64,000 bases of DNA from Nanobdellota archaeon. GTDB taxonomy: Archaea; Nanobdellota; Nanobdellia; Pacearchaeales; JAHJTO01. Numbering within the stretch: the first letter of the stretch is position 1; every line of letters begins with the position of its first letter. The translations under genes and the position numbers were made by a program. Below the pieces are notes generated by a model that saw only the letters and a list, made by a program, of their open reading frames with translations, made no database searches and was not told the DNA's origin. Below are positions 6,611 to 37,608 of the stretch, piece after piece. The stretch spans positions 1,683-65,682 of the forward strand of contig JBHPFA010000004.1 in NCBI GenBank assembly GCA_042572295.1, read 5' to 3'.

Positions 6611-6619
6611 TTTTGCTTT

Positions 6620-11060: not shown

Positions 11061-11125
11061 ATTATTCTGCTACAGCAATGTGGCAACACAAGACTTATAA
11101 ACTGATTTATCTGAGATGTTTTGAA

Positions 11126-12404: not shown

Positions 12405-12833
12405 ATGACAGAACAAGCAACATCACTATATGACCTAGAAGGTGGAAAATATACTACTAAACTTGCTTCCAAATTAAAAGAAATGGGTGAGTTTGAGATG
12501 CCTGAATGGGCTAATTATGTTAAGACAAGTTCTACTAAAGAAAGACCTCCTATAGATCTTAATTGGTGGTATGCAAGAGCTGCAAGTATTCTTAGGCAAA
12601 TTTATCTAAAAGGAACATTAGGTGTTGGAAGATTATCAACAAAGTATGGAAGTAAACAAAACAGAGGAGGAAAACCTTCAAGATTCTATAGTGGAGGGAA
12701 AAAAATAATCAGAACAATTCTACAACAGTCTGAAAAAGCAGGATTCCTTGAAAAAGTAACAGAAGGAAGACATGGTAGAAAATTAACTAAAAAAGGAAAA
12801 CAGTTCCTTGATGAAGCTGCAGGGGAAAAGTAA
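12405..12833 (+). CDS. rps19e: ribosomal protein eS19
   Basis: PEWANYVKT..KERPP...WWYARAASILR...YG...IIRTILQQ. Confidence 0.96.
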   Translation: MTEQATSLYDLEGGKYTTKLASKLKEMGEFEMPEWANYVKTSSTKERPPIDLNWWYARAASILRQIYLKGTLGVGRLSTKYGSKQNRGGKPSRFYSGGKKIIRTILQQSEKAGFLEKVTEGRHGRKLTKKGKQFLDEAAGEK

Positions 12834-19463: not shown

Positions 19464-19958
19464 ATGACAGAAGAAAATGTATTTGTGTTTGTTAAACCTG
19501 ATGCAATGATTAAAGGAATATATGGAATCATATTAGATGATATTGCATCCTCTGGATTAAAACTTGTTGGAGCAAAGTTAGTTAGAGTAACTAAAGAGCT
19601 TGCTGAAAAACATTATGAAGTTCATAAAGGAAAACCTTTCTATGAAGGATTAATTAAACATATTACTGGAGAATTTCATGTTGACAAAGTCATGGCTTTA
19701 GTTTACAAAGGAGATAATGCAATAAAAAGAATGAGAGAACTTGCTGGAGCAACACATCCTGAAAAAGCAGGGCCAACAACATTAAGAGGAAAGTTTGGAA
19801 GAGTAACTGCTCAAGATGTAATGGAAAATGTAGTTCATGTTTCAGATGCTCCAGAAACTGCTGAAACAGAGATTAAACTTTGGTTTTCTCCTAGTGAATT
19901 AACAGAAGAAGTTTATCCAACAAAGAAAGAGACTGGTGAAAAAATTATCTGGGCCTAA
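19464..19958 (+). CDS. ndk: nucleoside diphosphate kinase
   Basis: FVKPDA, HYEVHKGKPFY, GATHP and NVVHVSD (phospho-His). Confidence 0.95.
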   Translation: MTEENVFVFVKPDAMIKGIYGIILDDIASSGLKLVGAKLVRVTKELAEKHYEVHKGKPFYEGLIKHITGEFHVDKVMALVYKGDNAIKRMRELAGATHPEKAGPTTLRGKFGRVTAQDVMENVVHVSDAPETAETEIKLWFSPSELTEEVYPTKKETGEKIIWA

Positions 19959-21345
19959 ATTTAATAACTAATTTATCAATTTTCTTGACCATATAGGGAT
20001 CTTCTAATCTATAACCTAATTTTCTGTAATATTCTCTTACACCAACTCCAGAGATTACTTTTACTCTTTTACATTTTAATTGTTTTGCAATTTTCTCTGC
20101 TTTTTTCATTAATCTTATTCCAAAGCCTTTATGTTGTATTTCTCCAGTTCTTTTCTCTCCAATTACAACTTGAGGACCATAAACATGCAATTCTCTTACA
20201 TAAAGACTGTCTCCAACAACCCTCAATCTACATATTCCAAATAAAACTCCTTCAGAGTTTGAAAATTCTAAGAATATTTCTTCCTCACCAGAAGCAGTGT
20301 ATTCAAAAACCTTTAATTCAACTGTTCTAGTGTCAATAGGCATTTTATTGTTCCTTTGAACAAATCCAAACTCTCTGCAACGTATACAATTACACTTCAA
20401 GCCTTTAGAGTCCATTATTTCTTTTACTTCTTTTCTTAAATCTAATCTTGCAGGCTCTCCTATTACAAACTCTTTGTGGAATTCTCTCATTACACGCATT
20501 ATTCTAACATAACTTGGAGTGATTTGTTTTATTTTCATTACAAGATTAATTAATTGCTCATTTGTATAGGGCTTATAATTCATTTTCTTGTAAGTTTTTG
20601 CTAAAGCCGAGCCTTCCATAATTTGTGTTGGGTAGATTTTTATTTGATCTGGTCTAAAATCAGGATTCTTGAATATTTCTTTGAACATCTCAAAGTCTTT
20701 TTTAGGATTACTTCCTGGTAAGCCCGGCATCATATGATATCCAACTTTGAATCCTGCATCTTTTAGTCTTTTAGTTGCATCTATAACATCTTGTACAGTA
20801 TGGCCCCTATTAACTTTCTTATAGATCTCATCATCTAAAGCTTGAACACCTAACTCACACCTTGTTGCACCATAATCTAACATCTGGTTTATGTGATGTC
20901 TTTCACAAGTGTCTGGGCGAGTTTCAACACATAAGGCAATACAACGATATTCTGCATTCTGATTAACCTTTTTTGCCTGTTTCAAGTCTTTGCTTTTCTT
21001 CCCATTTAATGCATCAAAACACTTTTTGACGAATTCTTGTTGAAAGTCTTTAGTACATTGTAAGAATGTGCCTCCAAGAATAATTAACTCTATTTTATTT
21101 ACTGGTTGACCCATAAGATGGAATGCCCTAAGTCTTGCCCTTATCTGTTCTCCTGGATCATAATTTACAGGTTCAGCCCTAGTGATTGTTGAGCTTTTTG
21201 GAGTGTAGCTTTGAGAGACCCCTAAAGAAGGGCAATAAGTACATGTTCCATGATCACAAAGTCTTGGTGGGACGGCAACTGCTATAGGAGTCACTCCTGA
21301 TAGAGTCTTTGTCCTTTTCCTTACAACTTGTCTTTTAGAACTCAT
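19945..21345 (-). CDS. elp3: Elp3 tRNA uridine(34) acetyltransferase (radical SAM + GNAT)
   Basis: TLSGVTP, CDHGTCTYCP, GGTF, ETRPD, ELHVYG, QHKGFG and ISGVGVREYY. Confidence 0.95.
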   Translation of the reverse strand: MSSKRQVVRKRTKTLSGVTPIAVAVPPRLCDHGTCTYCPSLGVSQSYTPKSSTITRAEPVNYDPGEQIRARLRAFHLMGQPVNKIELIILGGTFLQCTKDFQQEFVKKCFDALNGKKSKDLKQAKKVNQNAEYRCIALCVETRPDTCERHHINQMLDYGATRCELGVQALDDEIYKKVNRGHTVQDVIDATKRLKDAGFKVGYHMMPGLPGSNPKKDFEMFKEIFKNPDFRPDQIKIYPTQIMEGSALAKTYKKMNYKPYTNEQLINLVMKIKQITPSYVRIMRVMREFHKEFVIGEPARLDLRKEVKEIMDSKGLKCNCIRCREFGFVQRNNKMPIDTRTVELKVFEYTASGEEEIFLEFSNSEGVLFGICRLRVVGDSLYVRELHVYGPQVVIGEKRTGEIQHKGFGIRLMKKAEKIAKQLKCKRVKVISGVGVREYYRKLGYRLEDPYMVKKIDKLVIKFRPR

Positions 21346-21429
21346 ATAAAATGGAGATAAGCCCCATTTAAAAAGCTAAGGATTATCGTAAGATTTTTAT
21401 ACCATTATCACTTGGAAAGAGTAACGAAA

Positions 21430-21882
21430 ATGAGTAAGAAACATAAGAAAAAATATAAGAAAAGCCATACTCCAAAAGATGTAGAGAAGGCTGTAGGTAA
21501 TTTAAGAAAAAAGCTTAAAAGAATGCCTTATTTTACTGAACTTTCTGGATATGCACCTTGGGCAGCTAAGGCGATAAGTAATGGAGATTATTCTCCTACA
21601 ATTAGATCATGGAGAGATTTTTTGACAGGTGTGTATTCTAAAGAATGGCCTCTCGTCAAGATTAACGATACATTTGATAAAGCAATGGGATCTTCTGAAA
21701 AAGTTCTGACAAGTCAAGAATTCAGAAAATATTGTAAACCTGCTTGGATGGTGTTGGAATATGGAAAATCTGACCTATTCCAGAAATATGGGGGATATGT
21801 GGGTTTTAGAGGCCTAAAATTCCCTGAGAAAAAAGAGAAAAGTATTGGTCTTCTTGGAAAATTATATATGGAATCTGACTAA
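21430..21882 (+). CDS. basic helical-repeat protein ending in the GLLGKLYMESD tag
   Basis: MPYFTEL...AISNGDYSPTIRSWRDFL resembles repeats in 29907-30530. ATG 21430 is preferred over TTG 21412. Confidence 0.7.
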   Translation: MSKKHKKKYKKSHTPKDVEKAVGNLRKKLKRMPYFTELSGYAPWAAKAISNGDYSPTIRSWRDFLTGVYSKEWPLVKINDTFDKAMGSSEKVLTSQEFRKYCKPAWMVLEYGKSDLFQKYGGYVGFRGLKFPEKKEKSIGLLGKLYMESD

Positions 21883-21893
21883 AGTTCGTTTAA

Positions 21894-21910
21894 ACAAAAC
21901 CTTTATAAAT
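21894..21910 (+). promoter_or_regulatory. putative BRE/TATA promoter of the SNF2 operon
   Basis: A-rich stretch followed by TTTATAAA at 21902-21909, 40 nt upstream of ATG 21950. Confidence 0.55.
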
Positions 21911-21949
21911 AAGTTGTTCTTCTATAATAGTAACAGGATTTTCTGTAAA

Positions 21950-24900
21950 ATGGAAGAAAACCCTCAAAATGATTTAATAAGTAAATTTGAAGAAGCCGCA
22001 GCTGATGGTGATGAAAATGCTAAAAAATTGCTTGAAAGAGCAAAAAAAAGAGGCCTCTCTACTGAGGCTTTGTTAGCTATAGCGATGCATGAAGAATTTG
22101 ATAAGATCCGTGCAGGCTCCCAACAAAGAAGGAATTTGGGTGAAAGATTAAAGAAGCTTAGAAAAGGAGCTGCATCACAAGTTCTAGAATTTAAGAGAAA
22201 ATTGAATAGAGAGATTGCTGATTTACACTATAACACAAAAACAGATTGGAAAAAATTAACAGACTGGGCAAAGAAAAAAGAAGAAGATTTGAAGAAAAGA
22301 AAAATAAAAAGAGAAGTCAAAAGTGCGATGGATTCTTGCCTTGAACAAGTTTATCTTAAGAAAGCTAAGCAATTAATAAATGAAAAGGGGATGAAAAAAG
22401 GTGACCTAAAAATCCCTATTGAATTGAAGAGAGTTGGAAAAAATAACGGAAGATATGCTGGAGTCAATGGCTTGAAGAAATTTATTGATGAACACAAAAA
22501 TGATAAAGGTAGGGGTGGAGGAGCAATCCGTGCATTGCTTTTCCTTGGAAATTCTGGAGGAGAAGTTAAAGGAGAGCTTATTGATGAGATAGTCAAAGAA
22601 TATCGCCTTCCAGAATTAGAAAACAATCCTAATTGGAAAAAGGTAAACCGACTTAGTGATTGTTTTGGAAAATTCTCAGTAAAAACAAATGATGATGTTG
22701 TTATAGATGCGGAACTACTTGTTGATTATTTGAAAGTTGATGAAAAAGACTTGCCGAATTCAATGAAGAGAATTCTGGACAGAATGGCAATCAACCACTA
22801 TATGCCAATCCATGATAGTAATCCTGGAAAGACTATCAATGATTTAGAAAGAATAGTCAATGGAGATACTGTAAAACTTTCTAAGAGACTTGCATCTAGA
22901 ACTCTTAGGTACTTAAAACAGCTAGAAAAAGTAGATATTCCAGGATTTGGAACGTTGACTAATCAAAAAGATACTCATGGGTATAGATTAAGAAACTTCC
23001 AATTTGATGGAGCAAAGTTTATTTCTGGAAAGAAAAGAGTTCTTGTTGCCGACGATATGGGTATGTTCAAAACTGCACAAACAATATTCGGAAAAGCATT
23101 AATAGAAAAGAAAATTGGAAAGATACCTTCACTTGTTGTTTGTCCTAACATGACAAAAGATCACTGGGTGAAGGAAATTTACAGATGGTATAGAAACGGA
23201 AGAGTACCGAGGGTTGCAGTTATCAAGGGAGATACTGTAGAGATAAAGTCCTCCCCAGATAGTTCTTGTATAGAAAAAAGAAAACTTGATGATATACTGA
23301 ATGAAAAGGATGCTGAGAGAATAAAGAATGATTATGATGTTGATTTTGTTATTGCAAATTATGAATCTTTTTCAAGAGAAAAAGAAGATGGTTCGCTAGC
23401 GCATAAAAGAGATCTTTATCTTAGCAGATTTAATCTAAAACATATAGTCGCTGATGAGGTCCATAATGCTAATCACCCCCATGCATTAAGAACAAAAGCT
23501 CTAAGGGATATAATTAATTCTTCAGAATACGTTACTATGTTATCTGGAACTCCTGTCCCCAATAGCATTTTAGACTTATATATGATCCTTCATTATTTAG
23601 ATCCAAAGAATTTCAATATTGATTTAGACAGTGATGAAAATATTGGTGAAACTATGAAAAATTTCGCTTTTAATTATGTAAGGGATGAAAAATACAGAAA
23701 TGATGTTAAGAAAATCTTGCACTCCAAGATGATTAGAAGAAAGACTGATAGATTCCTTAAGAGAGACGTTCCAAGGCTTGAAAATGAAGGCAATGAGATT
23801 GTTGAAGTACCCTTGTATGGAGATCATCTAAAAGTTTATGAGGAAATATTCAATAATGAGAAGGTAGATGCTTTGGGGGCATTAAACCAACTTAGAAAAG
23901 CTTCATTAGATCCTTTACTTGTAGATCCAAAATATATACAAGATAGAGAACTTAGAAAGAAAGTCAAAAAGGGACTTATTAAATCATGCAAGTACGAGGA
24001 ACTCCAGAAAAGAGTCAAAGAAGCTGTAGATGCTGGAAAGAAGGTTTTGATTTTCAAGAGTTCAGTATTTACAAAGGGAGTAACTAGTAAATACCCTCAA
24101 AGAGGAATCAAAGACCCTTTAGAAAGAGTTTTAGGGGAAGATTATAGAGAATATAATCCAGTAGTTATTGATAAGGACGTAGATACTGATAGCACTGGTA
24201 AGAAGATTAGTAAGAGAAACTTATTGAGACTTAAATTCCAATTTGGAACTGCTGATAAGATAGTTAAACATTTGGCAGATCAAGGAGATTATTATACTGT
24301 TCCTGCAATTGAAGAGAAGTTAAAGGATTTGAATGTTGATCCAAATGTTGATACTAAAGTAATGCTTGCTACTTTGGGAACTATGAATGAAGGAGTTGAT
24401 GTAACTGGTGCGGATGTTATGATTAACTTAGATCTTCCGGATAGACCTTCTGATGTAGACCAAGGAGATAGAAGATCTAGAAGAGTTGGGGAAATTAAGA
24501 AGAAAAGTGTAAGAATTGATAGATTGATTGCAAAAGTTCCTGATTTAAGATCTATGGATGAAGGAATCTATCAAAGAATTATGCAGAAAAAGGAAAATAT
24601 AGCTGCTATCTTTGACCATGTTCCTGTAACAATTGAAGATTTAGTAAATTCTCAAGAAGATAAAATAAAGACTACTTCCCCTGGAATTGATGAAGCAATG
24701 CCTATTAGATGGAAAACAGCAACTGGATTCTTTAATAAGCACACTGGAAAGGGGCAAGAAAAGTTCCAAGAAGATATAGAACTTAAAGAGATAGGAAAGA
24801 GAATTGCAAGAGCACAAGCTTCTAACTTAGAAACTGGTTATGGTGGAAATACTGCAAGAGTTTATACTAAAGTTATTGAAGGACTTGAAAGTGTTTTAGG

Positions 24901-25654
24901 AAAGAAAGATTGTAAATATGCTGATTTAGCCTCTGGACCGGCTACACTTTCTTATTTCTTAAGAAAACCTGTTGATTGTGTAGACATAAATCCATTCACA
25001 CTTAAGCAAGGTCAGAAATTAGCTGCTCCTGGAAGCAAATTCTATCCAGGATTTTTAATAGACTTGCCTAAAGAAATGGGGAGTAAAAAATATGATTTCG
25101 CAGTTTATTCTTTAGCATTGCACTTGCTTGGAGAAAGAAAACAAACGGATCAAGGGATGGTTAGAGAAAGAGAAAAATCCTTAAGAGAAGTTAATAAAAT
25201 CTTGAAGAAAGATGGTTATTTGATTCTTACTGCGCCAGAAGCAAAAATGAATGCTAAAAATGTACCTGAATTTTATGAAGGTTTGGAAAAATTAGGATTC
25301 AAAGTCATTCCTCAATTAAGTGGATTTGTAAAGGCCAAAGAAAAAGGTAAAAAATTCAAAGTGTACATGATTGTTGCACAAAAATATTCAGAACCTAAAA
25401 AGATTGCCCCTGGTAAACATTATTTTAGAATGTCTGAAAGACCCACAATTAGTGGAAATAATGGGACTAAAATAATTTCTAAAAACCAGCCTAGAAAGAA
25501 AGCTACAGATTCTAAAGGAGGCATAAGAGATAAAGGGAGTGAAGAAATGATGAAAGAAAGAAAGATCTGTCGTGAATTCGAGATCTTAAAAGGAAACAAT
25601 TATGGTAGCCTAGTAGATGCTATCAAAAGTTATGTTCAAGGAGGATACAAATGA
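21950..25654 (+). CDS. SNF2-family helicase/ATPase fused to a C-terminal class I SAM-dependent methyltransferase
   Basis: LRNFQFDG (Q motif), LVADDMGMFKT (Walker A variant), LVVCP, IVADEVH, LSGTPVPN, EGVDVTGADVMINLD, QGDRRSRRVG. C-terminal YADLASGP, VDINP, YDFAVYSLALH and LREVNKILKKDGYL. Confidence 0.88.
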   Translation: MEENPQNDLISKFEEAAADGDENAKKLLERAKKRGLSTEALLAIAMHEEFDKIRAGSQQRRNLGERLKKLRKGAASQVLEFKRKLNREIADLHYNTKTDWKKLTDWAKKKEEDLKKRKIKREVKSAMDSCLEQVYLKKAKQLINEKGMKKGDLKIPIELKRVGKNNGRYAGVNGLKKFIDEHKNDKGRGGGAIRALLFLGNSGGEVKGELIDEIVKEYRLPELENNPNWKKVNRLSDCFGKFSVKTNDDVVIDAELLVDYLKVDEKDLPNSMKRILDRMAINHYMPIHDSNPGKTINDLERIVNGDTVKLSKRLASRTLRYLKQLEKVDIPGFGTLTNQKDTHGYRLRNFQFDGAKFISGKKRVLVADDMGMFKTAQTIFGKALIEKKIGKIPSLVVCPNMTKDHWVKEIYRWYRNGRVPRVAVIKGDTVEIKSSPDSSCIEKRKLDDILNEKDAERIKNDYDVDFVIANYESFSREKEDGSLAHKRDLYLSRFNLKHIVADEVHNANHPHALRTKALRDIINSSEYVTMLSGTPVPNSILDLYMILHYLDPKNFNIDLDSDENIGETMKNFAFNYVRDEKYRNDVKKILHSKMIRRKTDRFLKRDVPRLENEGNEIVEVPLYGDHLKVYEEIFNNEKVDALGALNQLRKASLDPLLVDPKYIQDRELRKKVKKGLIKSCKYEELQKRVKEAVDAGKKVLIFKSSVFTKGVTSKYPQRGIKDPLERVLGEDYREYNPVVIDKDVDTDSTGKKISKRNLLRLKFQFGTADKIVKHLADQGDYYTVPAIEEKLKDLNVDPNVDTKVMLATLGTMNEGVDVTGADVMINLDLPDRPSDVDQGDRRSRRVGEIKKKSVRIDRLIAKVPDLRSMDEGIYQRIMQKKENIAAIFDHVPVTIEDLVNSQEDKIKTTSPGIDEAMPIRWKTATGFFNKHTGKGQEKFQEDIELKEIGKRIARAQASNLETGYGGNTARVYTKVIEGLESVLGKKDCKYADLASGPATLSYFLRKPVDCVDINPFTLKQGQKLAAPGSKFYPGFLIDLPKEMGSKKYDFAVYSLALHLLGERKQTDQGMVREREKSLREVNKILKKDGYLILTAPEAKMNAKNVPEFYEGLEKLGFKVIPQLSGFVKAKEKGKKFKVYMIVAQKYSEPKKIAPGKHYFRMSERPTISGNNGTKIISKNQPRKKATDSKGGIRDKGSEEMMKERKICREFEILKGNNYGSLVDAIKSYVQGGYK

Positions 25655-26208
25655 AATACACAGAATTCTTTGCTAGAGATTCAAAAGTTGTCTCAAAACA
25701 ACTTTTAGGAATGGATCTAGTAAGGACTTTTGGAGGAAGCGAAGATAAGAGAGCGACTATTGCAATGGCTAGTGCTTATAATGGCGAAGCTGGAAGACCT
25801 CAAAAAGGTCTTTTATACGCGCCTGGAGAGCTTTACTTGCCATGGTTTAGTGGATTTAGGAAACTTGCAATTGGATCAGACAAAGAGAATAAACCCTCTG
25901 TCATAACAATTGATGCAATAGTAACTCCTAGCGGAAATGTTCTAACTTCTTCAAAGATCTGTGATTACTTTAGGCTAGGTAAGAATAGCGACAAAGAATT
26001 AGTCGTTAATTACAAGAAAAGTGCACCTAGTATCTATGTAATCGGAGAAAGCGGCAACAGTATTAAGGAAGTTGATGAAAAGAGAGCTTCTAACTGTGTC
26101 GGACAATGGTCTTTGAAAGTGTTAGACGCTCTTAGAGGTATTTCCCCTAAAGGGAAAACCAAAAAGAAAGAGAAATTGAAGCTTCTTCAAAAGTACATGG
26201 AAGCATAA
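25651..26208 (+). CDS. degenerate 3-methyladenine DNA glycosylase (AAG/MPG)-like protein
   Basis: FFARDSKVVSKQLLG.DLVR...ATIAMASAYNG...APGELY matches the MPG N-terminus, but IVETEAY has become IAMASAY. 4-bp overlap with the SNF2 gene. Confidence 0.7.
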   Translation: MKYTEFFARDSKVVSKQLLGMDLVRTFGGSEDKRATIAMASAYNGEAGRPQKGLLYAPGELYLPWFSGFRKLAIGSDKENKPSVITIDAIVTPSGNVLTSSKICDYFRLGKNSDKELVVNYKKSAPSIYVIGESGNSIKEVDEKRASNCVGQWSLKVLDALRGISPKGKTKKKEKLKLLQKYMEA

Positions 26209-26237
26209 AACATTTCTCCAGTAGTTTTTAAGCTAAA

Positions 26238-27827
26238 ATGATAAATTTGGAGAAAAAGATAGTTGGAAATACAAAAAATGTAGGTGTGGCTCTGGGAGAG
26301 GTTCAAGGAGAAGAGATTTTGTGTTATACGAAACCTTCTGATGAGCAATTGAAAAAAGATTATGCTGAGTTTAAGTCTTGTAAAAAAATTGGGGAAAAAT
26401 ATGACTTGAATCCTTCAACTATTGCTAGATGGCTGAAAAAAATTGGAGTTGAAAGAAATCGTGGAATAAATAGGCCTTCTGAGGAACAGTTAAGAAAAGA
26501 TTATACTGAATTAAAGTCTACATATAAGGTTGGAGCAAAATATGGCTTATGCCAAAAGACTATTAGTAAATGGTTAAAAGAGGCAGGAATTGATGTTAAA
26601 AACCATAACATAAGAGAAAGTCCCACCAAGAAACAATTAAAGAAAGATTATAAAAGATTAAAGTCAACTCACAAACTTGGAAAAGAATATGATGTAAGCC
26701 AAAGACTTGCCCTTACTTGGTTAAATGATGCAGGGATTGGGGTTAAGAACTGTAGATATTATGAAAGACCTTCTGGGGAACGGTTAAAGAAAGATTATGT
26801 TAAATTAAAAACTTGTGAGAAGGTGGGGGAGAAATATGGGAGACGTCCTAGTACTGTTAATAGGTGGTTAAAGGATATTGGTGTTGAAGTTAAAGATAAT
26901 AGACAAGGGAAAAGACCTTCTGATGAAAAATTAAAGAAAGATTATGTTAAATTAAAAACCTGTGAAAAAGTGGGGAAGAAATATGACGTTTCTAGTGCTG
27001 CTGTTAATAAATGGTTGAAAGCGGCAGGTGTTGAAGTTAAAAGTCATCGTTATTATGACAGACCTTCTGAAGAACAGTTAAAGAAAGATTATGCTGAATT
27101 GAAGTCTATCATTAAGATGGGGGAGAAATATGGTGTAAGAGAAGGTACTGCAAGTAGGTGGTTGAAAGATGTAGGGGTTGAGGTTAAAAGTCACTTATAT
27201 ATTCGTAAGGCTTCTAATGATGAATTAAAAAAATCTTATGAAGAATTAAAATCTACTCGTAAAGTTGGAGAAAAATATGAAATAAGTCCTTCTGCCGTTC
27301 GTATTCGGTTAAATGAAATGGGTGTAGAAACCAAAAACCACAATCATAGGGAAAGGCCTTCTCCAGAACAATTGAAAAAAGACTATAGAGAATTAAAATC
27401 AATTGTCAAGATGGGGGAGAAATATGGTACTAACCCTACTACTGCTGGGGAATGGTTGAATGATATTGGAGTTAAATTGAACAGAGGAATAGATAAGCCA
27501 TCTGATGAACAATTAATAAGAGATTATGCTGAATTGAAATCTGTTGCAAAAATCAGCAAGAAATACGATGTAAGCACCCATACTGCTTATAGGTGGCTGA
27601 AGAAAGGAGGAGGGGTTGAGATTAAAACTCGCGCTAGAGGAAAAAAACCTTCTTATGAGCAATTAAAGAAAGATTATGAAAGATTAAAAGATACTCACAA
27701 GATTGGAGAAAAATATGATGTTAGTACTTCTACTGCTTATAATTGGTTAAAAGGTATAAAAACTGATGGACTAAGGACTGGGAGAAAAAAAGGACTTCTT
27801 GGAAAATTATACATGGAGGGAGATTGA
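26238..27827 (+). CDS. tandem HTH-repeat protein, 10 modules
   Basis: Ten ~49-aa units of RPS.EQLKKDY.ELKS..K.G.KY.v....a..WL...Gv. Ends in GLLGKLYMEGD. Confidence 0.9.
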   Translation: MINLEKKIVGNTKNVGVALGEVQGEEILCYTKPSDEQLKKDYAEFKSCKKIGEKYDLNPSTIARWLKKIGVERNRGINRPSEEQLRKDYTELKSTYKVGAKYGLCQKTISKWLKEAGIDVKNHNIRESPTKKQLKKDYKRLKSTHKLGKEYDVSQRLALTWLNDAGIGVKNCRYYERPSGERLKKDYVKLKTCEKVGEKYGRRPSTVNRWLKDIGVEVKDNRQGKRPSDEKLKKDYVKLKTCEKVGKKYDVSSAAVNKWLKAAGVEVKSHRYYDRPSEEQLKKDYAELKSIIKMGEKYGVREGTASRWLKDVGVEVKSHLYIRKASNDELKKSYEELKSTRKVGEKYEISPSAVRIRLNEMGVETKNHNHRERPSPEQLKKDYRELKSIVKMGEKYGTNPTTAGEWLNDIGVKLNRGIDKPSDEQLIRDYAELKSVAKISKKYDVSTHTAYRWLKKGGGVEIKTRARGKKPSYEQLKKDYERLKDTHKIGEKYDVSTSTAYNWLKGIKTDGLRTGRKKGLLGKLYMEGD

Positions 27828-27828
27828 A

Positions 27829-28470
27829 ATGCCATATAGAAAAGTTGATAGACCTTCTAAGAAACAATTAAGGCAAGATTACAAGGAATTGAAGTCTTGT
27901 GGAAAGATTGGAAAAAAATATGGAGTGAGTAGAATGGGTGCTCTTAATTGGTTGAGATATGCAGGAGTTGAAGTTAGACAATATAATCAAATAGAAGAAA
28001 TTTCTGGAAGACAATTAAGGAAAGATTATAGGGAATTGAATTCTTGTAAAAAAATTGGGGAGAAATATGGAATTAATGGAGGCACTATATCTAAACGATT
28101 AAAGGAATTAGGAGTTAAGATTAAGGAAAATAGAGTTATAGAAAGGCCTCCTAAAAGACAGCTAAAAAAGGACTATAGAGAATTGGGTTCTTGTGGAAAA
28201 ATGGGGGAAAAATATAAAGTGTCTCTCCACACTGTTAGCAAATGGCTAAATGATATTGGAATCGTTGTAAGAAATGGTTATGAAAGACCTTCTAAGGAAC
28301 AATTAAGAAAAGATTATGCTGAATTGAAATCTACAATAAAACTAGGGGAAAGATATAATGTATGTCAAGCGACTGCCCGTAATTGGTTGGTAGAAGAGGG
28401 TATTAAAATGAGAAAAAGATCTCCACCAAGACAAGGTCTTCTTAAAAGAATATACCTGGGGGAAGATTGA
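27829..28470 (+). CDS. tandem HTH-repeat protein, 4 modules
   Basis: Same repeat unit. ATG lies 1 nt after the upstream stop, with GGAGG upstream. Ends in GLLKRIYLGED. Confidence 0.88.
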   Translation: MPYRKVDRPSKKQLRQDYKELKSCGKIGKKYGVSRMGALNWLRYAGVEVRQYNQIEEISGRQLRKDYRELNSCKKIGEKYGINGGTISKRLKELGVKIKENRVIERPPKRQLKKDYRELGSCGKMGEKYKVSLHTVSKWLNDIGIVVRNGYERPSKEQLRKDYAELKSTIKLGERYNVCQATARNWLVEEGIKMRKRSPPRQGLLKRIYLGED

Positions 28471-28471
28471 G

Positions 28472-29248
28472 ATGACAACACCTTATGAAAGACCTCCGAG
28501 AGAACAATTAAAGAAAGATTATACTGAATTGAAATCTTGCACTAAAATAGCTAAGAAATATGGTATAAGTAAAAGCGCAATAGGAAATTGGATGGCTGAT
28601 GCAAAAATTAAACTAAAGGAAGCTCCAAGATATAATAGGCCTTCTGATGAAAAATTAAAAAGTCTTTATGAAGAACATGGCTCAAGTAAGAAAGTCGGAG
28701 AAGTATTGGGAGTTCCTCAAGTAAGAGCCTGGAAATGGTTGAAGAAAGCAAAGATATACATGCCAACAAGTCTTGAAAGGCCTTCTGATGAAAAGTTAAG
28801 GGAACTTTATGAAGAACATAAATCTGCAACAAAGATCGCAGGAGTTTTAGATGTGAGCCCAAAGACAGCATGCAACTGGCTAGAAGATATAGGAGTTAAT
28901 CTAAAATTTATACGTTATAAAAACAAACCATCAGTTGAAGAATTAAAGAGACTCTATAAAAAACATAATTCAGGTAATAAAATAGCTGCAGAATTAGGAG
29001 TAGGATCCCAAGCAGTAAGAAAATGGCTAGAGAAACACAAAATCCAAAAAACAAGGGTCAAAAGGCCCCCTTACAAACAGTTAAAGAGAGATTATATTAA
29101 ATTGAAGACTCCTAAGAAAATTGGAGAAAAATATAGTGTTAGGCCTTCTACTATTTATGCTTGGTTTAGAGAGTTAGATATTGGAACAAAAAGAAAATCT
29201 CCTACAAAATCTGGCCTTCTTGGAAAATTATACATGGAGGGAGATTGA
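28472..29248 (+). CDS. tandem HTH-repeat protein, 5 modules
   Basis: Same repeat unit; modules 2-4 are a subtype (LYEEH.S..KIA.vLgV). Ends in GLLGKLYMEGD. Confidence 0.88.
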   Translation: MTTPYERPPREQLKKDYTELKSCTKIAKKYGISKSAIGNWMADAKIKLKEAPRYNRPSDEKLKSLYEEHGSSKKVGEVLGVPQVRAWKWLKKAKIYMPTSLERPSDEKLRELYEEHKSATKIAGVLDVSPKTACNWLEDIGVNLKFIRYKNKPSVEELKRLYKKHNSGNKIAAELGVGSQAVRKWLEKHKIQKTRVKRPPYKQLKRDYIKLKTPKKIGEKYSVRPSTIYAWFRELDIGTKRKSPTKSGLLGKLYMEGD

Positions 29249-29249
29249 G

Positions 29250-29903
29250 ATGGGAGTACCTTGGAATAAAAAAGATAGACCTTCTGATGAACAGTTAAGG
29301 AAGGATTATACTAAATTTAGATCTATTACAAAGATGGGTAAGAAATATGAAGTAGCTCAATGTACTGTTTATAAATGGTTGAAAGAAGCAAAAATTGAAA
29401 CTCCTATGAGTTACAAAAGACCTTCTGATGAACAATTAAAAGAAGATTATAGGAAATTGAAATCTAGTACCAGAATCGGGAGGAAATATGGTGTTAGTGG
29501 AGGTGCTGTTCTAAAATGGTTGAAAAAATCTAAGATTGAAGCTAAAAGCCGTCTTTACAAAGAAAGACCTTCTGATGAACAATTGAGGAAAGATTATACT
29601 AAGTTGAAGACTACTAAAAAAGTTGGAAATAAATATGAGATTCACCAAGGAACTGCCCATAGGTGGTTGAAAAAAGCAGGAATCGAAACTAAAAACCAGA
29701 ATTATAAAGACAGACCTTCTGATGAGCAGCTGAAGAAAGACTATGCTGAGTTGAAATCCACTCGTAAAATCGGAAGAAAGTATAGAATTAGTCAAAGAGC
29801 TGCACTTGATTGGTTATTGGCTGGGGGAATTGATATTAAAGACTCTAACAATAAATTAAAACTTCAAGGCCTCCTTGGAAAATTATACATGGAGGGAGAC
29901 TGA
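29250..29903 (+). CDS. tandem HTH-repeat protein, 4 modules
   Basis: Four RPSDEQL units. ATG lies 1 nt after the upstream stop. Ends in GLLGKLYMEGD. Confidence 0.88.
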   Translation: MGVPWNKKDRPSDEQLRKDYTKFRSITKMGKKYEVAQCTVYKWLKEAKIETPMSYKRPSDEQLKEDYRKLKSSTRIGRKYGVSGGAVLKWLKKSKIEAKSRLYKERPSDEQLRKDYTKLKTTKKVGNKYEIHQGTAHRWLKKAGIETKNQNYKDRPSDEQLKKDYAELKSTRKIGRKYRISQRAALDWLLAGGIDIKDSNNKLKLQGLLGKLYMEGD

Positions 29904-29906: not shown

Positions 29907-30530
29907 ATGGAAAAAATAACTTTGAAATATATACATGAAACTTTCAATGAAGGAAAGGATAGAAGGGGCTATGCTCTTTCTCCGCTTAAATTCATTGAAA
30001 GACATCCAGAGATAGCTACAGCAATATATAATGGAAAGGTTCCTGAACTTAGAAATGTAGCTCATCTTTACAGAATAAGAGGTCTAGACCCAACTAAAGG
30101 AGACGTTTTATCTAAAGAAGAGATTAGAAGAAGAGTATATCCTCATGTTAAAAAGATAATTGCGCCAACTAGAGAAAAAATGGTAGAGATAGATCCTGCT
30201 GTGATTTTTTCAATCATACATGGAGGTTATGATCCAAAAAAGAGGACTTGGATAGGATTTTTGAAAGCAGAAGGATTTATACAAAATAATAAAAATGTTG
30301 GAAGGAAAATACAAATAACTGAAGAAATGATAGATAATGCCTATGATGGTTGTATGGATAAAAATGGGGAGAGTTATATGCCAAGCATATTAGAGATGAA
30401 AAAAGAATTAAAGAAAGACTATTCTGGCGCATTAGAAAGAATGGGAATGACACATACTGGATTTATAGCTTTAAGGAGAATGGGTGGAAGATTAGGCAAG
30501 GCGCCTAGTGGATTAGAGAAGAAACTATAA
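29907..30530 (+). CDS. helical-repeat hypothetical protein
   Basis: About three loosely repeated units (e.g. PTREKM...SIIHGGYDPKKRTWIGFL), similar to 21430-21882. Confidence 0.7.
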   Translation: MEKITLKYIHETFNEGKDRRGYALSPLKFIERHPEIATAIYNGKVPELRNVAHLYRIRGLDPTKGDVLSKEEIRRRVYPHVKKIIAPTREKMVEIDPAVIFSIIHGGYDPKKRTWIGFLKAEGFIQNNKNVGRKIQITEEMIDNAYDGCMDKNGESYMPSILEMKKELKKDYSGALERMGMTHTGFIALRRMGGRLGKAPSGLEKKL

Positions 30531-30629: not shown

Positions 30630-31283
30630 ATGGAAAAGATACTTGAGCTTGTTGAAAGAAAAAAACCCTTTGAATATGGTGGAATTTTAGAACAGAATTT
30701 TTTTAAAAGAGATTGTAAAACTATAGCAAGGGATTTGTTAGGTAAAGAAATATCAAGGGGATATTCAGGAGGGGGTGCAGGAATGGTTGTTTTCATTAAT
30801 TATGGGATTATAATTAAAGCTAGCGCTTATGAGGGAAATGGCCCTCAAGAAGGATTATCTTTTGCTCCAGGAAGAATTTGTATTAATGATTCAGAGTTGA
30901 GTATGGGCACTGAAAGGAAAAGAAAATCTTCTATAGTTACTATTGATGCACTAGCTATTCCTTCTTTTGCTATAGTTGGTAGCAGAAAAATAGAAGTCCG
31001 AGAAAAACCTAAGATAATCTTTTCTGAAAATATGCAAGATTTTCATGAACAATTTGATACTTATAAGGGGATTGAGAATAATGAACCAGTCTATGACACT
31101 ACAGCACATGAAAGACACAGTGAGCTTGGAGAATATTGTTATGATGCACTAAGGGAAGGGTTTCGTATTACTAGCTATAAAGAAGATATTACTAATTTAT
31201 TTGGTGGGATAAAGGAAATAGGAAAAAATAAAGCCCCTAATTGTATTGGAACTTATACTCTTGACTCTTTAGTCTCTTCTTAA
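30630..31283 (+). CDS. second degenerate AAG/MPG-like protein
   Basis: FFKRDCKTIARDLLGK...GIIIKASAYEG..PQEGLSFAPG...TIDA...APNCIG. Paralog of 25651-26208. Confidence 0.7.
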   Translation: MEKILELVERKKPFEYGGILEQNFFKRDCKTIARDLLGKEISRGYSGGGAGMVVFINYGIIIKASAYEGNGPQEGLSFAPGRICINDSELSMGTERKRKSSIVTIDALAIPSFAIVGSRKIEVREKPKIIFSENMQDFHEQFDTYKGIENNEPVYDTTAHERHSELGEYCYDALREGFRITSYKEDITNLFGGIKEIGKNKAPNCIGTYTLDSLVSS

Positions 31284-33418: not shown

Positions 33419-35569
33419 TTATTGAATTTTCTGTCTTCCAACTTTATCTAAAGCAATTTTAAGTGGTTGTTGAGGTTTCTTTGAAAATAATTTAAGATAT
33501 ATCAATACTCCAACAGATATTGCTGCTAAAGCAAGCATTGTCCAACCAATAGCTTTCTTGTTTAAAGGTTTCTTTTCTTTTTCTACTTCTTCATCAACAT
33601 CAACTTCCTCTTCAGTTATTAACAATTCAATAGGGAGTGAAACAGAAGTGCCAGAAGTTTCTGCATTAATACTTCCAGAATATTCTCCAAAAGCATTTTC
33701 TGTATTGAAAATAATTTCTATTTCTTGAGACTTGCCTGGAGAAATTTCAAAATCTGCAGGTTCTATGCTCTCTAATATATTTGAAAGGCCAAATGTGGCT
33801 ATGCTAACTTGTTGAGATTCTTTTGCCAGACTTGTTAATTTTACAATAATCGAATTACTTTCCTTTTTAGTTAAAGAGGAATTTATTTTGTCAGGAGTAA
33901 ATTGTAATTCTGCTGGGAAGAGTGAAACCCCTCCTGAAGAAGTTTCATTAAGAATAGTTTCTGTTTCTTCTTCTGTGATTCCTGAAGGAAAGATAATTAT
34001 TGGAATCCTATAACTTCTCTCATTTGTAGAAAATAAAGTATTGTAGCTTATTTCTGCTTCTGTAAATGTTAAAGAAGAATATTTTTGAGAGGAAAATATT
34101 AAGGAAGCTTCAGATGATGGAAAAATTGTTACTTCTTCGGTAGATCCAAAAAGAGAAGCGCTTAAATTAACACTGAAAATTCCATTATTAGTAAAAGAAA
34201 TGGTCAAGTTTTCTCCACTGTTTACTTTTACTAATCCTGTTGAAGAAATTAAAGGTTCTATTTTGTCTGAAGAAAATAATCTAAGGGCATAAGAAGTTTC
34301 TTTTTGATTTCCAAATATCCCTTGGCTTTCAAATAGATTCTTTAACCAAGTTTCTCCTTTTAATTTTGCATTTCCACTAATTACTTCAGTTACTAAGACT
34401 GTTGAAAGGACATCAGGGGTGTTTGATAAAGCTAATGCGACTTTTGCCCAGAATCCTTCTTGTGCTTGATTGTTGATTAACCAAGTTTCAATATCATTAT
34501 CATTTGTTAATGAATAGTAGATTGCTCGTTGTTCAGTAGATTCTATATTTTCCCCTAGCCAAGCTGTTTCTTCTTGTAAGCTTGTTTCTCCGAGTTCTTC
34601 CAAAGCTAAGATTGCATATGCTGTTGAATCAACATCACATTCACTTCTGTATTCTTCTCCCCAACATTTTTTGTTATTAATAACAAGAGAATATGAAAGG
34701 CCCTCAGTTTGCATAGGGAAATTATGTACCTTCCCTAAATAAGTATTTGAAACTTTTGCTGAAGAAAGTGAACAAGCAGTTGTAAGAGTAATTTCAGAAT
34801 CATCCGGAAGTGTTAAGGAGATTGGAGAATTTGCTCCAGAGGTTAATGTAAGTGATTGATTCACTCCATTAATTGTTAAATCACATGTTTGTGCAGAATT
34901 TGATGTAACTATCAAATCCCAAAGTCCTAATTCAATATTATTCTCTGCATCAAGCAACCAAGCTTTTATTTTTTCTTTTTGTTCTGAATCCTTAAGAGGA
35001 ATTGCTGCGAGTGAAGTTGGTTTAACTTCACAAGTAGAAGAAGGCCAACATTCTTGAGAAGAACTTTTAGAAAGTAATGTTGATTTCCCTTCTTCAAACA
35101 AATCTGAATCATAATTTAAAACATTTAATGCCAAAGCAATATCTTCTACAGAAAGAGAAGACCACTTATTATCCACCTTACTTATTAACCAAGAATAAGC
35201 TTCTTGTAAGGGCCTTTGAATTATGAAATTTGTTTCCTTTACTTCTTCAATTAGAGTTTCTTCTTGACATAAAGAAACAACTCTAAACTTATTTTCTCCA
35301 TATTTTGTCGGAACTTTTGCCCAAACAAGCCATTTATCATTTGCAATTTGTTCTAAATTAAAATCAATAGAATATTTTATGTTATCCCTATAAAAACCTA
35401 AATCTTCCTCTGCTAAAGGTTTCTTGAATTCTCCTGTAATCTCTGCTTGAAAATTCTCTCCAGAATAATATGCTTGTTTAGAGAGCTGAACAAAAGCACA
35501 TTCAGCAGAAGAGAAAGGCATTAAAGTCAAGATAAAGGCCAATATTGCTAAAAATAAAAGTTTATTCAT
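33419..35569 (-). CDS. surface protein with alpha/alpha-toroid (prenyltransferase/squalene-cyclase-like) repeats, Ig-like domains and a C-terminal TM helix
   Basis: Signal peptide, AYSWL, CWP...C.VK.TSLA, WLINNQAQEGFW, and a C-terminal TM helix with basic tail. Confidence 0.72.
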   Translation of the reverse strand: MNKLLFLAILAFILTLMPFSSAECAFVQLSKQAYYSGENFQAEITGEFKKPLAEEDLGFYRDNIKYSIDFNLEQIANDKWLVWAKVPTKYGENKFRVVSLCQEETLIEEVKETNFIIQRPLQEAYSWLISKVDNKWSSLSVEDIALALNVLNYDSDLFEEGKSTLLSKSSSQECWPSSTCEVKPTSLAAIPLKDSEQKEKIKAWLLDAENNIELGLWDLIVTSNSAQTCDLTINGVNQSLTLTSGANSPISLTLPDDSEITLTTACSLSSAKVSNTYLGKVHNFPMQTEGLSYSLVINNKKCWGEEYRSECDVDSTAYAILALEELGETSLQEETAWLGENIESTEQRAIYYSLTNDNDIETWLINNQAQEGFWAKVALALSNTPDVLSTVLVTEVISGNAKLKGETWLKNLFESQGIFGNQKETSYALRLFSSDKIEPLISSTGLVKVNSGENLTISFTNNGIFSVNLSASLFGSTEEVTIFPSSEASLIFSSQKYSSLTFTEAEISYNTLFSTNERSYRIPIIIFPSGITEEETETILNETSSGGVSLFPAELQFTPDKINSSLTKKESNSIIVKLTSLAKESQQVSIATFGLSNILESIEPADFEISPGKSQEIEIIFNTENAFGEYSGSINAETSGTSVSLPIELLITEEEVDVDEEVEKEKKPLNKKAIGWTMLALAAISVGVLIYLKLFSKKPQQPLKIALDKVGRQKIQ

Positions 35570-35574
35570 TTTTT

Positions 35575-37557
35575 CTATTTGCTTGCATACTTTCTTAGTT
35601 TATCTATAGTTTTTTGCAAGTCTGTGTCTGTTTTAGTTGAGGATTTTCTTTGAGGGGTAGGTCTTGGATGATGTCTTTGATAGGAAAATGGCCTAACAGG
35701 AGTTGGAGGCCCTGCTTGAGTATAAGGCTTCACTGGCGGCCTATAACTTACTTTTCCACCGCTTTTTGGAGGCTCTTTCTTAAATGTTTTTGATAATTTA
35801 TCCATATACTTGTCCAATAAACCTTTTTTGTACAAAAATATCAAAGCTCCAGCCACTACAATTAAGATTATGAATAACCAAATCCAGAAGCTTGCCTTTC
35901 CTTTACAATCTCCTTGACAACAGAAACTTGAAGCAGAAGCATCACTTGCGGAAACAATGTTCCCATCACATTTTTGATTATTGCTACAAAAAATTCCACT
36001 TTGTTCAGAACAAATTACTTGAGAAGGAATACAGCTACCTACACAACACCTATCTGATTCAAGTGTTTTTCTTGTATTAACATCACATTCTTCATCATAA
36101 TCACATTCCTCTCCACCAAGTTCGAAACAAGTTAATGTACAGTCATTATCATCCATGTCTATTAGATCATCACCATCATTGTCAAACTCATCATCACAAG
36201 TATTTTCTGCTACTTCACACTGTCCACGTCTTCCGAAGATATCAGTTACAAATTCTCCTTTACATTCAGATTTACTACAGTCTTCTGTATCACTACAATC
36301 TGCTAAACCTGAAGATTTACAACAGACTCCGACTGCACAAGATATGGAGGCTTTTTCTTCTTCTTCAGATAAACAATCTGTTCTACAGAAATAATTGTAG
36401 ACGTCTTCACAATCATTTATTCCTCCAGAAACGATTTTTGGCCATGATGAATAAAGGGCCATTGCAGTATCTCTAATCTTTTTTGTAGTTCCAAAACTTC
36501 CATCATTATTTTGATTTTTCAAAAGCCAATCTTGCGCTTTAGTTACATTATCTGTAGCGTAATCAAAAAGACCTAAAATTCCAAGAGAAGTATCCCAATA
36601 TTTGCCTTTACCTCTAACTTGTGACCAATATCCTATCCTATTTTGTTTTGATAATAAACTGTTTGCATGATCTTCTTTTCCAGTCAATAGCCAAAGTATT
36701 GAATCTGGAAGTAAATGTTGGTTATTTCCTGATTCTCCAATCAAATAAGGGAGGAAATGAGTATATTCCCTATCTGCTTGATATAAAGCATAAGTTCCCC
36801 ACATTGTAGATTCATAATTACAGCTTGCCCCTTCCTTTATACAGACTGCTTCTATTGCTACATCTGTTGGAGTTTCAAAGGTTTCTGGGGAAATGTAAAG
36901 TGAGCTTGACATATAAGGGATTGATACTGAAGCAGGAACATCGCAAGAGATTGTGTAAATGTTATCTAAGCATCCTTTAGAAATTTTAATCCAGTATTTT
37001 CCTTGGATGATTTGAGATCCAACAATATCTACTAAACTTAAACAAGATGGAGAAGAACCTCCCCATGAATAAGTTTTGTCTTCATTTATTTCTAAGTTGT
37101 ATTCTTTTGAATCATAAACAATAGAACAGTTTGCAGGTTCACTTGAATCCACTTGAAGCAGCCAATTTAAATTTGAACCAGTAAATGTTGTTTCTCTTTC
37201 TAAAAGCCAATCTGTTTCTTCTTCAACAGATTCACCTAAAGCATTTAATGCAAGAATTGAAAAAGCAGTTTCTTTAGACCTACATCTTCTTGCCGGCCAA
37301 CATGCCTCTTCTTCATCCTGTTTATCTAATAAAGCATTCCTTCCATCAACTGCAAGTCTATCATCATAACCTAAAGCCATTAAAGCCAAGGCATTTGTTT
37401 CAGAGTCCAAATTTTGCCATTTCGCGTCGGATTGATCTATTAACCAAAGATAAGCATTCTCTATTTTTAAGTCATCATCTACTTCTGCTATTACTAGGGG
37501 ACAAAGTGATAAAGCTAAGATAGATACTAATAATACAATTACTCCCCTCTTTTTCAT
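35575..37557 (-). CDS. paralogous surface protein with toroid repeats, Cys-rich region and TM anchor
   Basis: AYLWL, CWP..C..KETAF, WLLKNQNNDGSF, CDDEFDNDGDDLIDMDDNDC, then a TM helix and Pro-rich cytoplasmic tail. Confidence 0.72.
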   Translation of the reverse strand: MKKRGVIVLLVSILALSLCPLVIAEVDDDLKIENAYLWLIDQSDAKWQNLDSETNALALMALGYDDRLAVDGRNALLDKQDEEEACWPARRCRSKETAFSILALNALGESVEEETDWLLERETTFTGSNLNWLLQVDSSEPANCSIVYDSKEYNLEINEDKTYSWGGSSPSCLSLVDIVGSQIIQGKYWIKISKGCLDNIYTISCDVPASVSIPYMSSSLYISPETFETPTDVAIEAVCIKEGASCNYESTMWGTYALYQADREYTHFLPYLIGESGNNQHLLPDSILWLLTGKEDHANSLLSKQNRIGYWSQVRGKGKYWDTSLGILGLFDYATDNVTKAQDWLLKNQNNDGSFGTTKKIRDTAMALYSSWPKIVSGGINDCEDVYNYFCRTDCLSEEEEKASISCAVGVCCKSSGLADCSDTEDCSKSECKGEFVTDIFGRRGQCEVAENTCDDEFDNDGDDLIDMDDNDCTLTCFELGGEECDYDEECDVNTRKTLESDRCCVGSCIPSQVICSEQSGIFCSNNQKCDGNIVSASDASASSFCCQGDCKGKASFWIWLFIILIVVAGALIFLYKKGLLDKYMDKLSKTFKKEPPKSGGKVSYRPPVKPYTQAGPPTPVRPFSYQRHHPRPTPQRKSSTKTDTDLQKTIDKLRKYASK

Positions 37558-37608
37558 TGGTATGTTACGCCCATATTATTTAAAACCCTTTCTGTTTCAA
37601 GATTAGAA

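Follow-up and report, generated by a model that had tools for sequence, protein, structure and literature searches.

A shared C-terminal peptide on seven neighboring proteins of a DPANN archaeon probably plugs them into one DNA-handling machine

Proteins are known to use docking peptides at their C terminus. In chemoreceptors, a C-terminal pentapeptide docks the methyltransferase CheR, and the acidic C-terminal tail of the bacterial single-stranded DNA-binding protein (SSB) likewise tethers. Here, we describe a peptide of comparable build, GLLGKLYME(G/S)D, that ends several proteins encoded in a window of 64,000 nucleotides (nt) from a Nanobdellota archaeon (contig JBHPFA010000004.1, here C4, positions 1683 to 65682; window positions are counted from the first letter of this stretch). 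The genome, G000, comprises 856 kb on 14 contigs and is 77% complete. The peptide or a form of it is carried by a short open reading frame (ORF A), a fusion of an SNF2-family ATPase to a class I S-adenosylmethionine (SAM) methyltransferase, a protein with the predicted fold of alkyladenine/methylpurine DNA glycosylase (AAG/MPG; MPG-like 1), and four arrays of helix-turn-helix (HTH) units (H1 to H4). As with CheR and SSB, a short conserved C-terminal peptide on a flexible linker is common to many paralogues and would be a docking site, and the enzyme docked in the CheR case is a class I SAM methyltransferase, as is a domain here. In contrast to those tethers, the sequence and the proteins are other, no receptor domain was identified, and the enzyme itself carries the tail.

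In logic only, the locus also recalls the specificity subunits of type I restriction-modification systems and the activation-domain recruitment of SWI/SNF, in that exchangeable DNA readers would direct a motor and a methyltransferase and in that the genes are clustered and vary in number. Unlike type I restriction-modification, it has no HsdS homology and no nuclease, and its methyltransferase matches the generic families Methyltransf_11 and Methyltransf_31, not DNA methylase families. The arrays may further be compared with Cbp1, a multi-HTH CRISPR-repeat-binding protein of Sulfolobales; in both, small HTH units stand in tandem in one archaeal DNA-binding protein, and H3 matches positions 5 to 124 of the 135-position model (NCBIfam NF040595). 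The H3 score of 48.8 bits is, however, far under the equivalog cut-off of 140, and membership of H3 in Cbp1 was rejected. Searches of the full-text literature, supplementary files not covered, yielded no description of such a cluster or tail, and both the motif and the cluster appear undescribed.

The C-terminal peptide and its coding sequence

GLLGKLYME(G/S)D is the C terminus of ORF A, H1, H3, and H4, and H2 ends in the variant GLLKRIYLGED, as an earlier reading of the letters alone (the sequence-only reading) had described. All carriers lie on the forward strand. ORF A (21430 to 21882; 150 amino acids [aa]; C terminus KSIGLLGKLYMESD) bears its tag, GLLGKLYMESD followed by TAA, at 21847 to 21882, where the copy reads ATGGAATCTGACTAA. 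The arrays follow one another closely: H1 (26238 to 27827; 529 aa; tag at 27792 to 27827; C terminus RKKGLLGKLYMEGD), H2 (27829 to 28470; 213 aa; variant tag at 28435 to 28470; C terminus PRQGLLKRIYLGED), H3 (28472 to 29248; 258 aa; tag at 29213 to 29248; C terminus TKSGLLGKLYMEGD), and H4 (29250 to 29903; 217 aa with four three-helix units; tag at 29868 to 29903; C terminus KLQGLLGKLYMEGD). A degenerate form that had been reported for MPG-like 1 (25651 to 26208) was confirmed: this protein ends in KLKLLQKYMEA, of which KLLQKYMEA plus TAA occupies 26179 to 26208, with the spacing of the tails of other genomes. To these six a scan with a looser pattern added a seventh carrier, the SNF2-methyltransferase (21950 to 25654; 1,234 aa), which ends in SLVDAIKSYVQGGYK. 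Its tail, GSLVDAIKSYVQGGYK plus TGA at 25604 to 25654, has GGAGG inside it and an ATGA overlap to the next gene, and is of the ancestral type.

A six-frame scan of all 14 contigs with the strict pattern GLL.[KR][LIVM]Y.{1,6}$, a search of the kind that the sequence-only reading had proposed, returned five ORFs in the whole genome, A and H1 to H4. The looser C-terminal pattern matched 23 of the 835 ORFs of at least 100 aa, and seven of the 23 are the consecutive cluster genes from A to H4. A chance origin of the tag is excluded, and in G000 the tag is restricted to this cluster. None of 400 other genomes of the order contains the exact back-translated GLLGKLYME; as an exact sequence the tag is lineage-specific, and only the motif class is shared across genomes.

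Over the 36 nt of the tail, H1 and H3 are identical at 35 positions, H3 and H4 at 34, and H1 and H4 at 33; A agrees with H1, H3, or H4 at 28 positions and H2 with the others at 23 to 28. In the first nine codons (GLLGKLYME), A differs from H3 at three nucleotides, all of them silent, and the synonymous differences listed in the sequence-only reading are correct. Of the 81 possible single changes in these codons 17 are silent, and a simulation assuming equal rates for all substitutions gave P = 0.0074 for three silent changes. The tag of A keeps 10 of 11 residues. Where residues are identical, A and the arrays use the same codon at 5 of 9 positions of the tail; the array bodies do so at 54 to 64%, a background that reflects strong codon bias, and the synonymous-site divergence of A from the arrays is about that between the array bodies. 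At positions that need not supply a Shine-Dalgarno (SD) site, A has returned to the common codons TAT and GAA. In the related tails of two other genomes of the order, described below, residues are likewise kept in different codons, with the Leu, Ser, Glu, and Val codons shuffled in G034 and other codons used in G151. The silent changes in A and the different codons in G034 and G151 therefore indicate selection on the peptide, which is selected at the protein level and not only kept as DNA. The earlier claim of protein-level conservation is thereby borne out, also by related tails in 27 of the best 150 of 783 distant homologues.

Part of the tail answers to the next gene. SD sites can be embedded in the 3' coding end of an upstream gene, with GGAGG in the last codons, the next start 1 to 3 nt after the stop or overlapping it, and G and E residues thereby fixed. 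H1 to H4 have a GGAGG-like run that precedes, by 5 to 10 nt, a start codon abutting or overlapping the stop. GGAGGGAG lies inside the tails of H1, H3, and H4, 6 to 9 nt before the next ATG, these being the three copies that had been said to supply a GGAGG SD site, and GGGGGAAG lies in that of H2; the next ATG follows one base after the TGA of H1 to H3 and three bases after the stop of H4. Such a site is absent from MPG-like 1, which is followed by a 29-nt spacer, and from A. The latter had been noted to lack both GGAGG and a coupled ATG, and indeed a 67-nt spacer without GGAGG separates it from the SNF2-methyltransferase ATG at 21950. Where no gene is tightly coupled downstream the terminal Gly is missing, as in MESD of A, YMEA of MPG-like 1, YIED of the last gene of the G034 cluster, and EEYIKPNKK of a 164-aa protein of metagenome locus L134; in G151, GAAGGAGG stands 7 nt upstream of an overlapping ATGA start. 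The last two to four G/E-rich residues are thus an imprint of the SD site of the next gene, outside the function of the peptide, and the locus offers a clean example of an SD site shaping the last residues of a protein. Embedded SD sites explain these residues only, however, and the LL..Y core persists without an SD site.

TATA-like boxes stand about 30 to 40 nt upstream of the ATGs of A (TTTTTATA, 21393 to 21400) and of the SNF2-methyltransferase (TTTATAAATA, 21902 to 21911, within the spacer that follows A), which suggests separate promoters with short leaders for these two genes.

The cluster and its proteins in other genomes

Related clusters occur in other genomes (G and L numbers denote genomes of the order and loci, respectively). 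With the methyltransferase part of the window protein as query (E <= 1e-8), 10 of 401 sampled genomes of the order gave a match, a lower bound because at least G034, with a divergent copy, was missed and was reached via the arrays, in a search of 40 relatives with H4. G034 belongs to the same order but another family and has an MPG-like gene, a 1,183-aa SNF2-methyltransferase, and four tandem repeat-protein genes with the tails NSLLEQYVGETI, SSLLESYVGEEAHEE, KSLLESYVERQ, and ESLLEQYIED. All four adaptor genes end in SLLE[QS]Y[VI], including the last, which keeps the motif without a coupled neighbor. Among five pattern matches near the end of open frames of more than 100 codons in G034, four are these cluster tails and the fifth is in a doubtful 134-codon frame. 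The G151 cluster consists of an MPG-like gene, six small repeat-protein genes, and then the SNF2-methyltransferase; five of the six small genes end in a form of LE[ST/D][IL]LE (LLESILED, LLESLLEEG, LETILEGG, FEDILENGG, and LESLLEEGG). G106 has an MPG-like gene, the SNF2-methyltransferase, and three arrays that have a 24-residue tail in common (3 of 3). In G186, G093, and G013 the SNF2-methyltransferase is followed by arrays with a third type of tail containing IPGHG, which is common to both arrays of G186. G357, G358, and G212 each have an MPG-like gene, the SNF2-methyltransferase, and one array; the tails of G357 and G212 resemble the G106 type, and the G358 end is different. Finally, in a metagenome-assembled genome (MAG) of Micrarchaeota (L035), the SNF2-methyltransferase is flanked by eight tandem paralogues, the largest number of tandem repeat-protein genes per cluster, and all eight end in QSRR[KR]EAILQVVEAMEEF. 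Searches of the three nearest genomes (G001 to G003) did not reveal the cluster, and its distribution is therefore patchy. Judged from these comparisons, the tag marks a conserved, patchily distributed DPANN cluster that includes one Micrarchaeota MAG. Related tails in homologues elsewhere are the opposite of the absence that the sequence-only reading had named as the sign of a mere duplication remnant.

Tails were also found on the enzymes and on metagenome contigs. Of the further SNF2-methyltransferases, that of L133 ends in DLDSAIQSYIQKVAGK and is followed by an array ending in SLEKAVQEYIEK, P0153 ends in PLEEKIKKYVSKSI, another ends in RLEEFIRESLQK, and the G151 protein carries DLQKAIRRFQERKGK near its end. 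Short metagenome contigs contain tandem arrays with tails (L130), MPG-like genes beside arrays (L132 and L135), and an HNH_repeat-like protein ending in YLEQAVEEYIKPNKKSKSL (L134). By these endings, all four protein classes of the cluster can carry the tail. A related-locus search with the SNF2 alignment gave mostly generic SNF2 genes, and only L034, L035, and L036 covered the methyltransferase part. A smaller alignment (A5) gave no relative in genome contigs, seven metagenome loci (six short, one weak), and four weak viral matches.

In a wide-family search, phmmer with H4 against 1.84 billion representatives (E <= 1e-3) gave 783 matches, and the tails of the best 150 of the 783 were tabulated. 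Their consensus is s-L-E-x-h-h-x-x-Y-h-G, where h stands for a hydrophobic residue, and 27 of these 150 end in h-h-x-x-[YF]-h within 14 residues of the C terminus. The strict form h-h-x-x-Y-h-G was found in 16 of the 150 proteins in the last 22 residues, versus 3 interior occurrences in 64,316 residues. By eye, others among these 150 have a G106-type tail (about 12), the IPGHG type (3), or an HNH nuclease at the end (about 7).

The window arrays consist of units of about 46 residues that belong to Pfam HTH_23 or HTH_28 (gathering cut-offs 24.6 and 25). H1 (90.7 bits), H3 (59.5 bits), and H2 (25.4 bits) match HTH_23, and H4 matches HTH_28 (30.8 bits). Outside the tail, the bodies of H1, H3, and H4 have only 32 to 46% of aligned residues in common. 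A word-index protein search with H3 returned nothing at E <= 1e-3, and a protein atlas gave only generic multi-HTH clusters.

The window SNF2-methyltransferase passes the cut-off for SNF2-rel_dom (93.6 bits) and falls below it for Helicase_C (21.1 versus 23.5), Methyltransf_31 (21.6 versus 27), and Methyltransf_11. Its G151 homologue passes Helicase_C (48.7 bits) and Methyltransf_11 (27.5 versus 21.2), alignments of the window protein with its counterparts in other clusters extend over the full length, and one homologue is annotated in its source as a helicase/SAM-dependent methyltransferase; a fusion of the two enzymes is thus present. PADLOC found only generic SNF2 matches in the cluster (ZorD, DpdE, and DrmD) and no known defense system.

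MPG-like 1 was modeled with a predicted local distance difference test score (pLDDT) of 85, and Foldseek matched the model to nine human AAG chains (E, 3.9e-9 to 4.5e-7; TM, 0.61 to 0.68). By tblastn it is related to the G106 homologue (E, 9e-18). Neither MPG-like 1 nor MPG-like 2, a 217-aa protein without a tail at 30630 to 31283 (+) with a tblastn E of 1.5e-7 to the G106 MPG-like protein, has a Pfam match at E <= 0.01; the homologues of G034 (41 bits), G106 (45 bits), and G151 (89 bits) exceed the cut-off of PF02245 (27). Alignment of ten MPG-like proteins places the end of the domain at NC.G.[YW]S, and the K-rich extension of 29 residues that forms the linker and tail of MPG-like 1 is absent from all nine homologues.

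ORF A has no Pfam match, finds only itself among 5.8 billion proteins, and has no homologue in 60 related genomes. BLASTP related it to four small repeat proteins of the G151 cluster (E, 2.6e-10 to 1.5e-8), of which three match Pfam HNH_repeat (homing endonuclease associated repeat, PF18780; cut-off 26) at 29 to 35.5 bits and the fourth scores 25.9. A is thus a putative HNH_repeat-like small adaptor, by homology a member of the second class of DNA-binding repeat proteins of the cluster. A is homologous to G151 cluster proteins that bear the same type of tail, and the tag is therefore a hallmark of one conserved gene cluster. The earlier description of the carriers as unrelated is too simple, as A belongs with repeat proteins of the G151 cluster.

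Several features were seen beside these clusters. In L035, the first array (6604 to 7443) and the SNF2-methyltransferase (9479 to 12640) start with the same N-terminal peptide, MARGKQVE, and the internal paralogues all start MLAS[KR]Q, overlapping the previous stop; starts and tails are both shared, and the junctions are therefore conserved on both sides. In G357, G358, and G212 a second family of two to four tandem paralogues (470 to 630 aa) lies on the opposite strand beside the MPG-like gene (L124, 13654 to 19752; L126, 3859 to 7169; L127, 351 to 7432; all on the minus strand). These proteins start M.K.YND.AK or MRKDTYDFE and have their own shared C-terminal region, QL.A.KAH.TMGTY. The IPGHG-type clusters (L125, 7668 to 8084; L030, 10581 to 10994) have no MPG-like gene in the stretch read and continue with a conserved gene of about 138 aa (M..TTSYF.V...VKGKKISIAR.H).

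Docking and rival explanations of the tail

The account that we prefer, tentatively and just short of an even chance, is that the tail docks: a helix tethered by a flexible basic linker, it would bring the proteins of the cluster together. The tag would be the version in this lineage of a widespread C-terminal peptide built on the core h-L-(E)-x-h-h-x-x-Y-h; the linker would end in this peptide, an amphipathic helix of about three turns that folds on binding. The peptide marks nearly every protein of the cluster (the SNF2-methyltransferase, the AAG/MPG-like glycosylase, and the variable tandem DNA-binding repeat proteins), and docking would bring interchangeable DNA-reading proteins and enzymes into one complex, either through a receptor surface on a cluster protein or through tails packing against each other. 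The anatomy fits a docking signal, as the sequence-only reading had proposed: a linker rich in K, R, S, and P precedes an amphipathic helix whose positions i, i+1, i+4, and i+5 are hydrophobic. The models show the tail as a helix of its own after a low-confidence linker, with low confidence in H4 (units above pLDDT 90, residues 201 to 206 below 50, tail helix 202 to 214 about 50) and moderate confidence in MPG-like 1 (linker 59, helix 172 to 184 at 72 to 75). Peptides that fold on binding usually present themselves in this way, as a separate predicted helix behind a low-confidence linker. Within a genome the tails resemble one another, and between genomes they differ, which fits coevolution with a lineage-specific partner or with each other. 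We infer docking because the tail is restricted to the cluster, sits on different folds, and is alike within and different between genomes.

Several observations weigh against this account. The SNF2-methyltransferase has a tail of its own in G000, L133, P0153, and G151 and is therefore not obviously the receptor; another receptor is favored, be it the MPG-like protein (which usually has no tail), other tails through mutual packing, or PCNA, so that any docking partner named here is a candidate only. Complex prediction for the H4 tail (44 residues, 5-row alignment) and the SNF2-methyltransferase core (residues 330 to 1234, 6-row alignment), run without controls, gave no answer (score, 0.00) and counts neither way. 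The homology of the short tails (G000, G034, and G151) to the long types (G106, G093/G186, and L035) is uncertain, and the SD site imposes part of what appears as a motif. CTTCTT encodes Leu-Leu in five of six copies, although CTT makes up only 23% of Leu codons; this constancy and the near-identical DNA of H1, H3, and H4 indicate recent duplication or gene conversion, from which the likeness of tails within a genome could also stem.

The main rival, which we consider unlikely, is that the tail is a noncanonical PCNA-interacting peptide (PIP box), by which each cluster protein would bind the sliding clamp independently in a tool-belt arrangement. A PCNA gene is present in the window (39093 to 39827, plus strand; NCBIfam DNA polymerase sliding clamp, E 7e-59), as a candidate hub only. 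By sequence, the tail resembles PIP boxes in being a short peptide at the extreme C terminus (its core ends two to four residues before the stop) that follows a flexible basic linker, in its occurrence on proteins with unrelated folds that act on DNA, and in its spacing: position 4 is aliphatic (L, V, or I) in all listed tails, three residues before a Tyr/hydrophobic pair at 7 and 8, as in Q-G-L-L-G-K-L-Y, x-S-L-L-E-Q-Y-V, and E-K-A-V-Q-D-Y-I. According to a review of archaeal PCNA, PIP boxes are usually at extreme termini and form a single 3-10 turn, and the archaeal PCNA clients Dpo4 and RNase H lack the Gln and the second aromatic residue, respectively (PMC3504372). Every carrier is expected to act on DNA, and a single external hub would be the simplest account of a tail on every class, the SNF2-methyltransferase included. 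In two defining features, however, the loose likeness to a PIP box that the sequence-only reading had pointed out breaks down. Gln occupies position 1 in two of five tags (H2 and H4; the others have K, I, or S) and in none of the four G034 tails (N, S, K, and E), and the wide family has mostly E, K, or D. The aromatic pair at 7 and 8 is absent, being L-Y in the tags and Y-M, Y-V, or Y-I in MPG-like 1 and other genomes, whereas the genome's own C-terminal PIP-like ends are canonical, with F-F and W-F. These are QKSLKKFF on a 338-aa protein that starts MGLQ (C11:6597-7613) and QVTMKQWF in QVTMKQWFGEKS, which ends a 1,145-aa protein (C2:88199-91636). Moreover, the motif is confined to one cluster, the tails are modeled as helices of about three turns and not as a single 3-10 turn, and they differ strongly between genomes, reaching helices of 20 to 24 residues in syntenic clusters, whereas the PCNA pocket is conserved.

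Other accounts were weighed as well. That the tag has no peptide function, being a remnant of duplication or recombination kept alike by gene conversion and retained for the SD site and start context of the next gene, is in our judgment quite unlikely. The SD run in the tails of H1, H3, and H4, their near identity as DNA beside array bodies that have diverged, the retention of the rare codons TAC, GAG, and CTT, and the junctions of L035, where the tail and the head of the next gene are nearly identical DNA across paralogues, all speak for it; yet A, the last G034 gene, and MPG-like 1 keep the core without a coupled gene or SD site, the core changes of A are all silent, G034 and G151 keep the residues in different codons, and the tail recurs on four protein classes and among the distant homologues counted above. 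Improbable, too, is another targeting signal, whether for export or transfer to a secretion or conjugation-like apparatus or as a protease or chaperone tag. Secretion substrates typically share a C-terminal signal despite different folds, and directly upstream of the G034 cluster (L021, G034:C1:616000-635900, 425 to 5385) are small membrane-protein genes and a 984-aa ATPase that by eye suggest a VirB4/TraC-type transfer apparatus. This adjacency is seen in one locus only, however; no transfer-type genes stand beside the cluster in the window, and none of a transfer apparatus were recognized in G106, G151, or L035 (by eye, ORF ends only). Highly improbable, in our view, is an RNA hairpin encoded by the conserved DNA, in which the Leu-Leu codons (CUUCUU or CCUCCU) would mask the SD site (GGAGG) until the upstream ribosome arrives and so couple translation. 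At six of six junctions the Leu-Leu codons are base-paired with the purine-rich SD region in the minimum-energy fold, which would explain the constant CTTCTT, but the folds are no better than shuffles (z scores of +0.57, +0.10, -0.91, -1.54, +0.58, and -2.30) and pyrimidine-rich Leu codons pair with any SD site. Nor has A an SD site, the Leu codons of G034 are mixtures of TTA, CTT, and CTA, and a hairpin leaves the conserved G-K-L-Y or E-x-Y-V residues unexplained.

Two further candidates were rejected. The proteasome-docking motif HbYX consists of a hydrophobic residue, Tyr, and any residue as the last three residues, and Tyr is 4 to 5 residues from the end in all six copies of the tag. A programmed frameshift fusing successive arrays was considered since the downstream frame is open across the junction, and was dropped for want of evidence.

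Neighboring genes and implications

Downstream of H4 and translationally close to it (TGAAATATG) lies a gene at 29907 to 30530 (+) for a 207-aa protein without a tail; no profile assigned it to a family, and it has no homologue in the other cluster loci. The ORF directly upstream of A (19945 to 21345) is Elp3-like by eye. The other neighbors identified by profile in the window are housekeeping genes, namely, those for a class II tRNA synthetase, NDK, Hjc, and PCNA. Four large ORFs (716, 660, 456, and 1,934 aa) at 33419 to 38979 (-) and 42025 to 47829 (+) have no Pfam match at E <= 1e-5.

Through their tails, the products of the seven neighboring genes are probably plugged into one DNA-handling machine. 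A broader interpretation, which is possible but on balance doubtful, is that the cluster gives DPANN archaea a modular system of DNA targeting that has not been described, in which exchangeable sequence readers, HTH arrays and HNH_repeat modules whose number and repeat count change from genome to genome, would plug via a common C-terminal peptide into an engine of SNF2 translocase-methyltransferase and AAG-like glycosylase, so that the repertoire of readers would program where DNA is remodeled, methylated, or base-excised. Its purpose might be defense or the manipulation of genome or host DNA, and the patchy distribution could suit a role in defense or in host-DNA manipulation. In uncultured archaea, short docking peptides are not easily detected; comparative genomics exposes a probable one here and leads to a conserved cluster. 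If the tail is indeed a plug that joins DNA readers to enzymes, the cluster would be a simple case of modular recruitment of a chromatin-type motor in very small archaeal genomes, and the arrays would be candidate programmable DNA readers.

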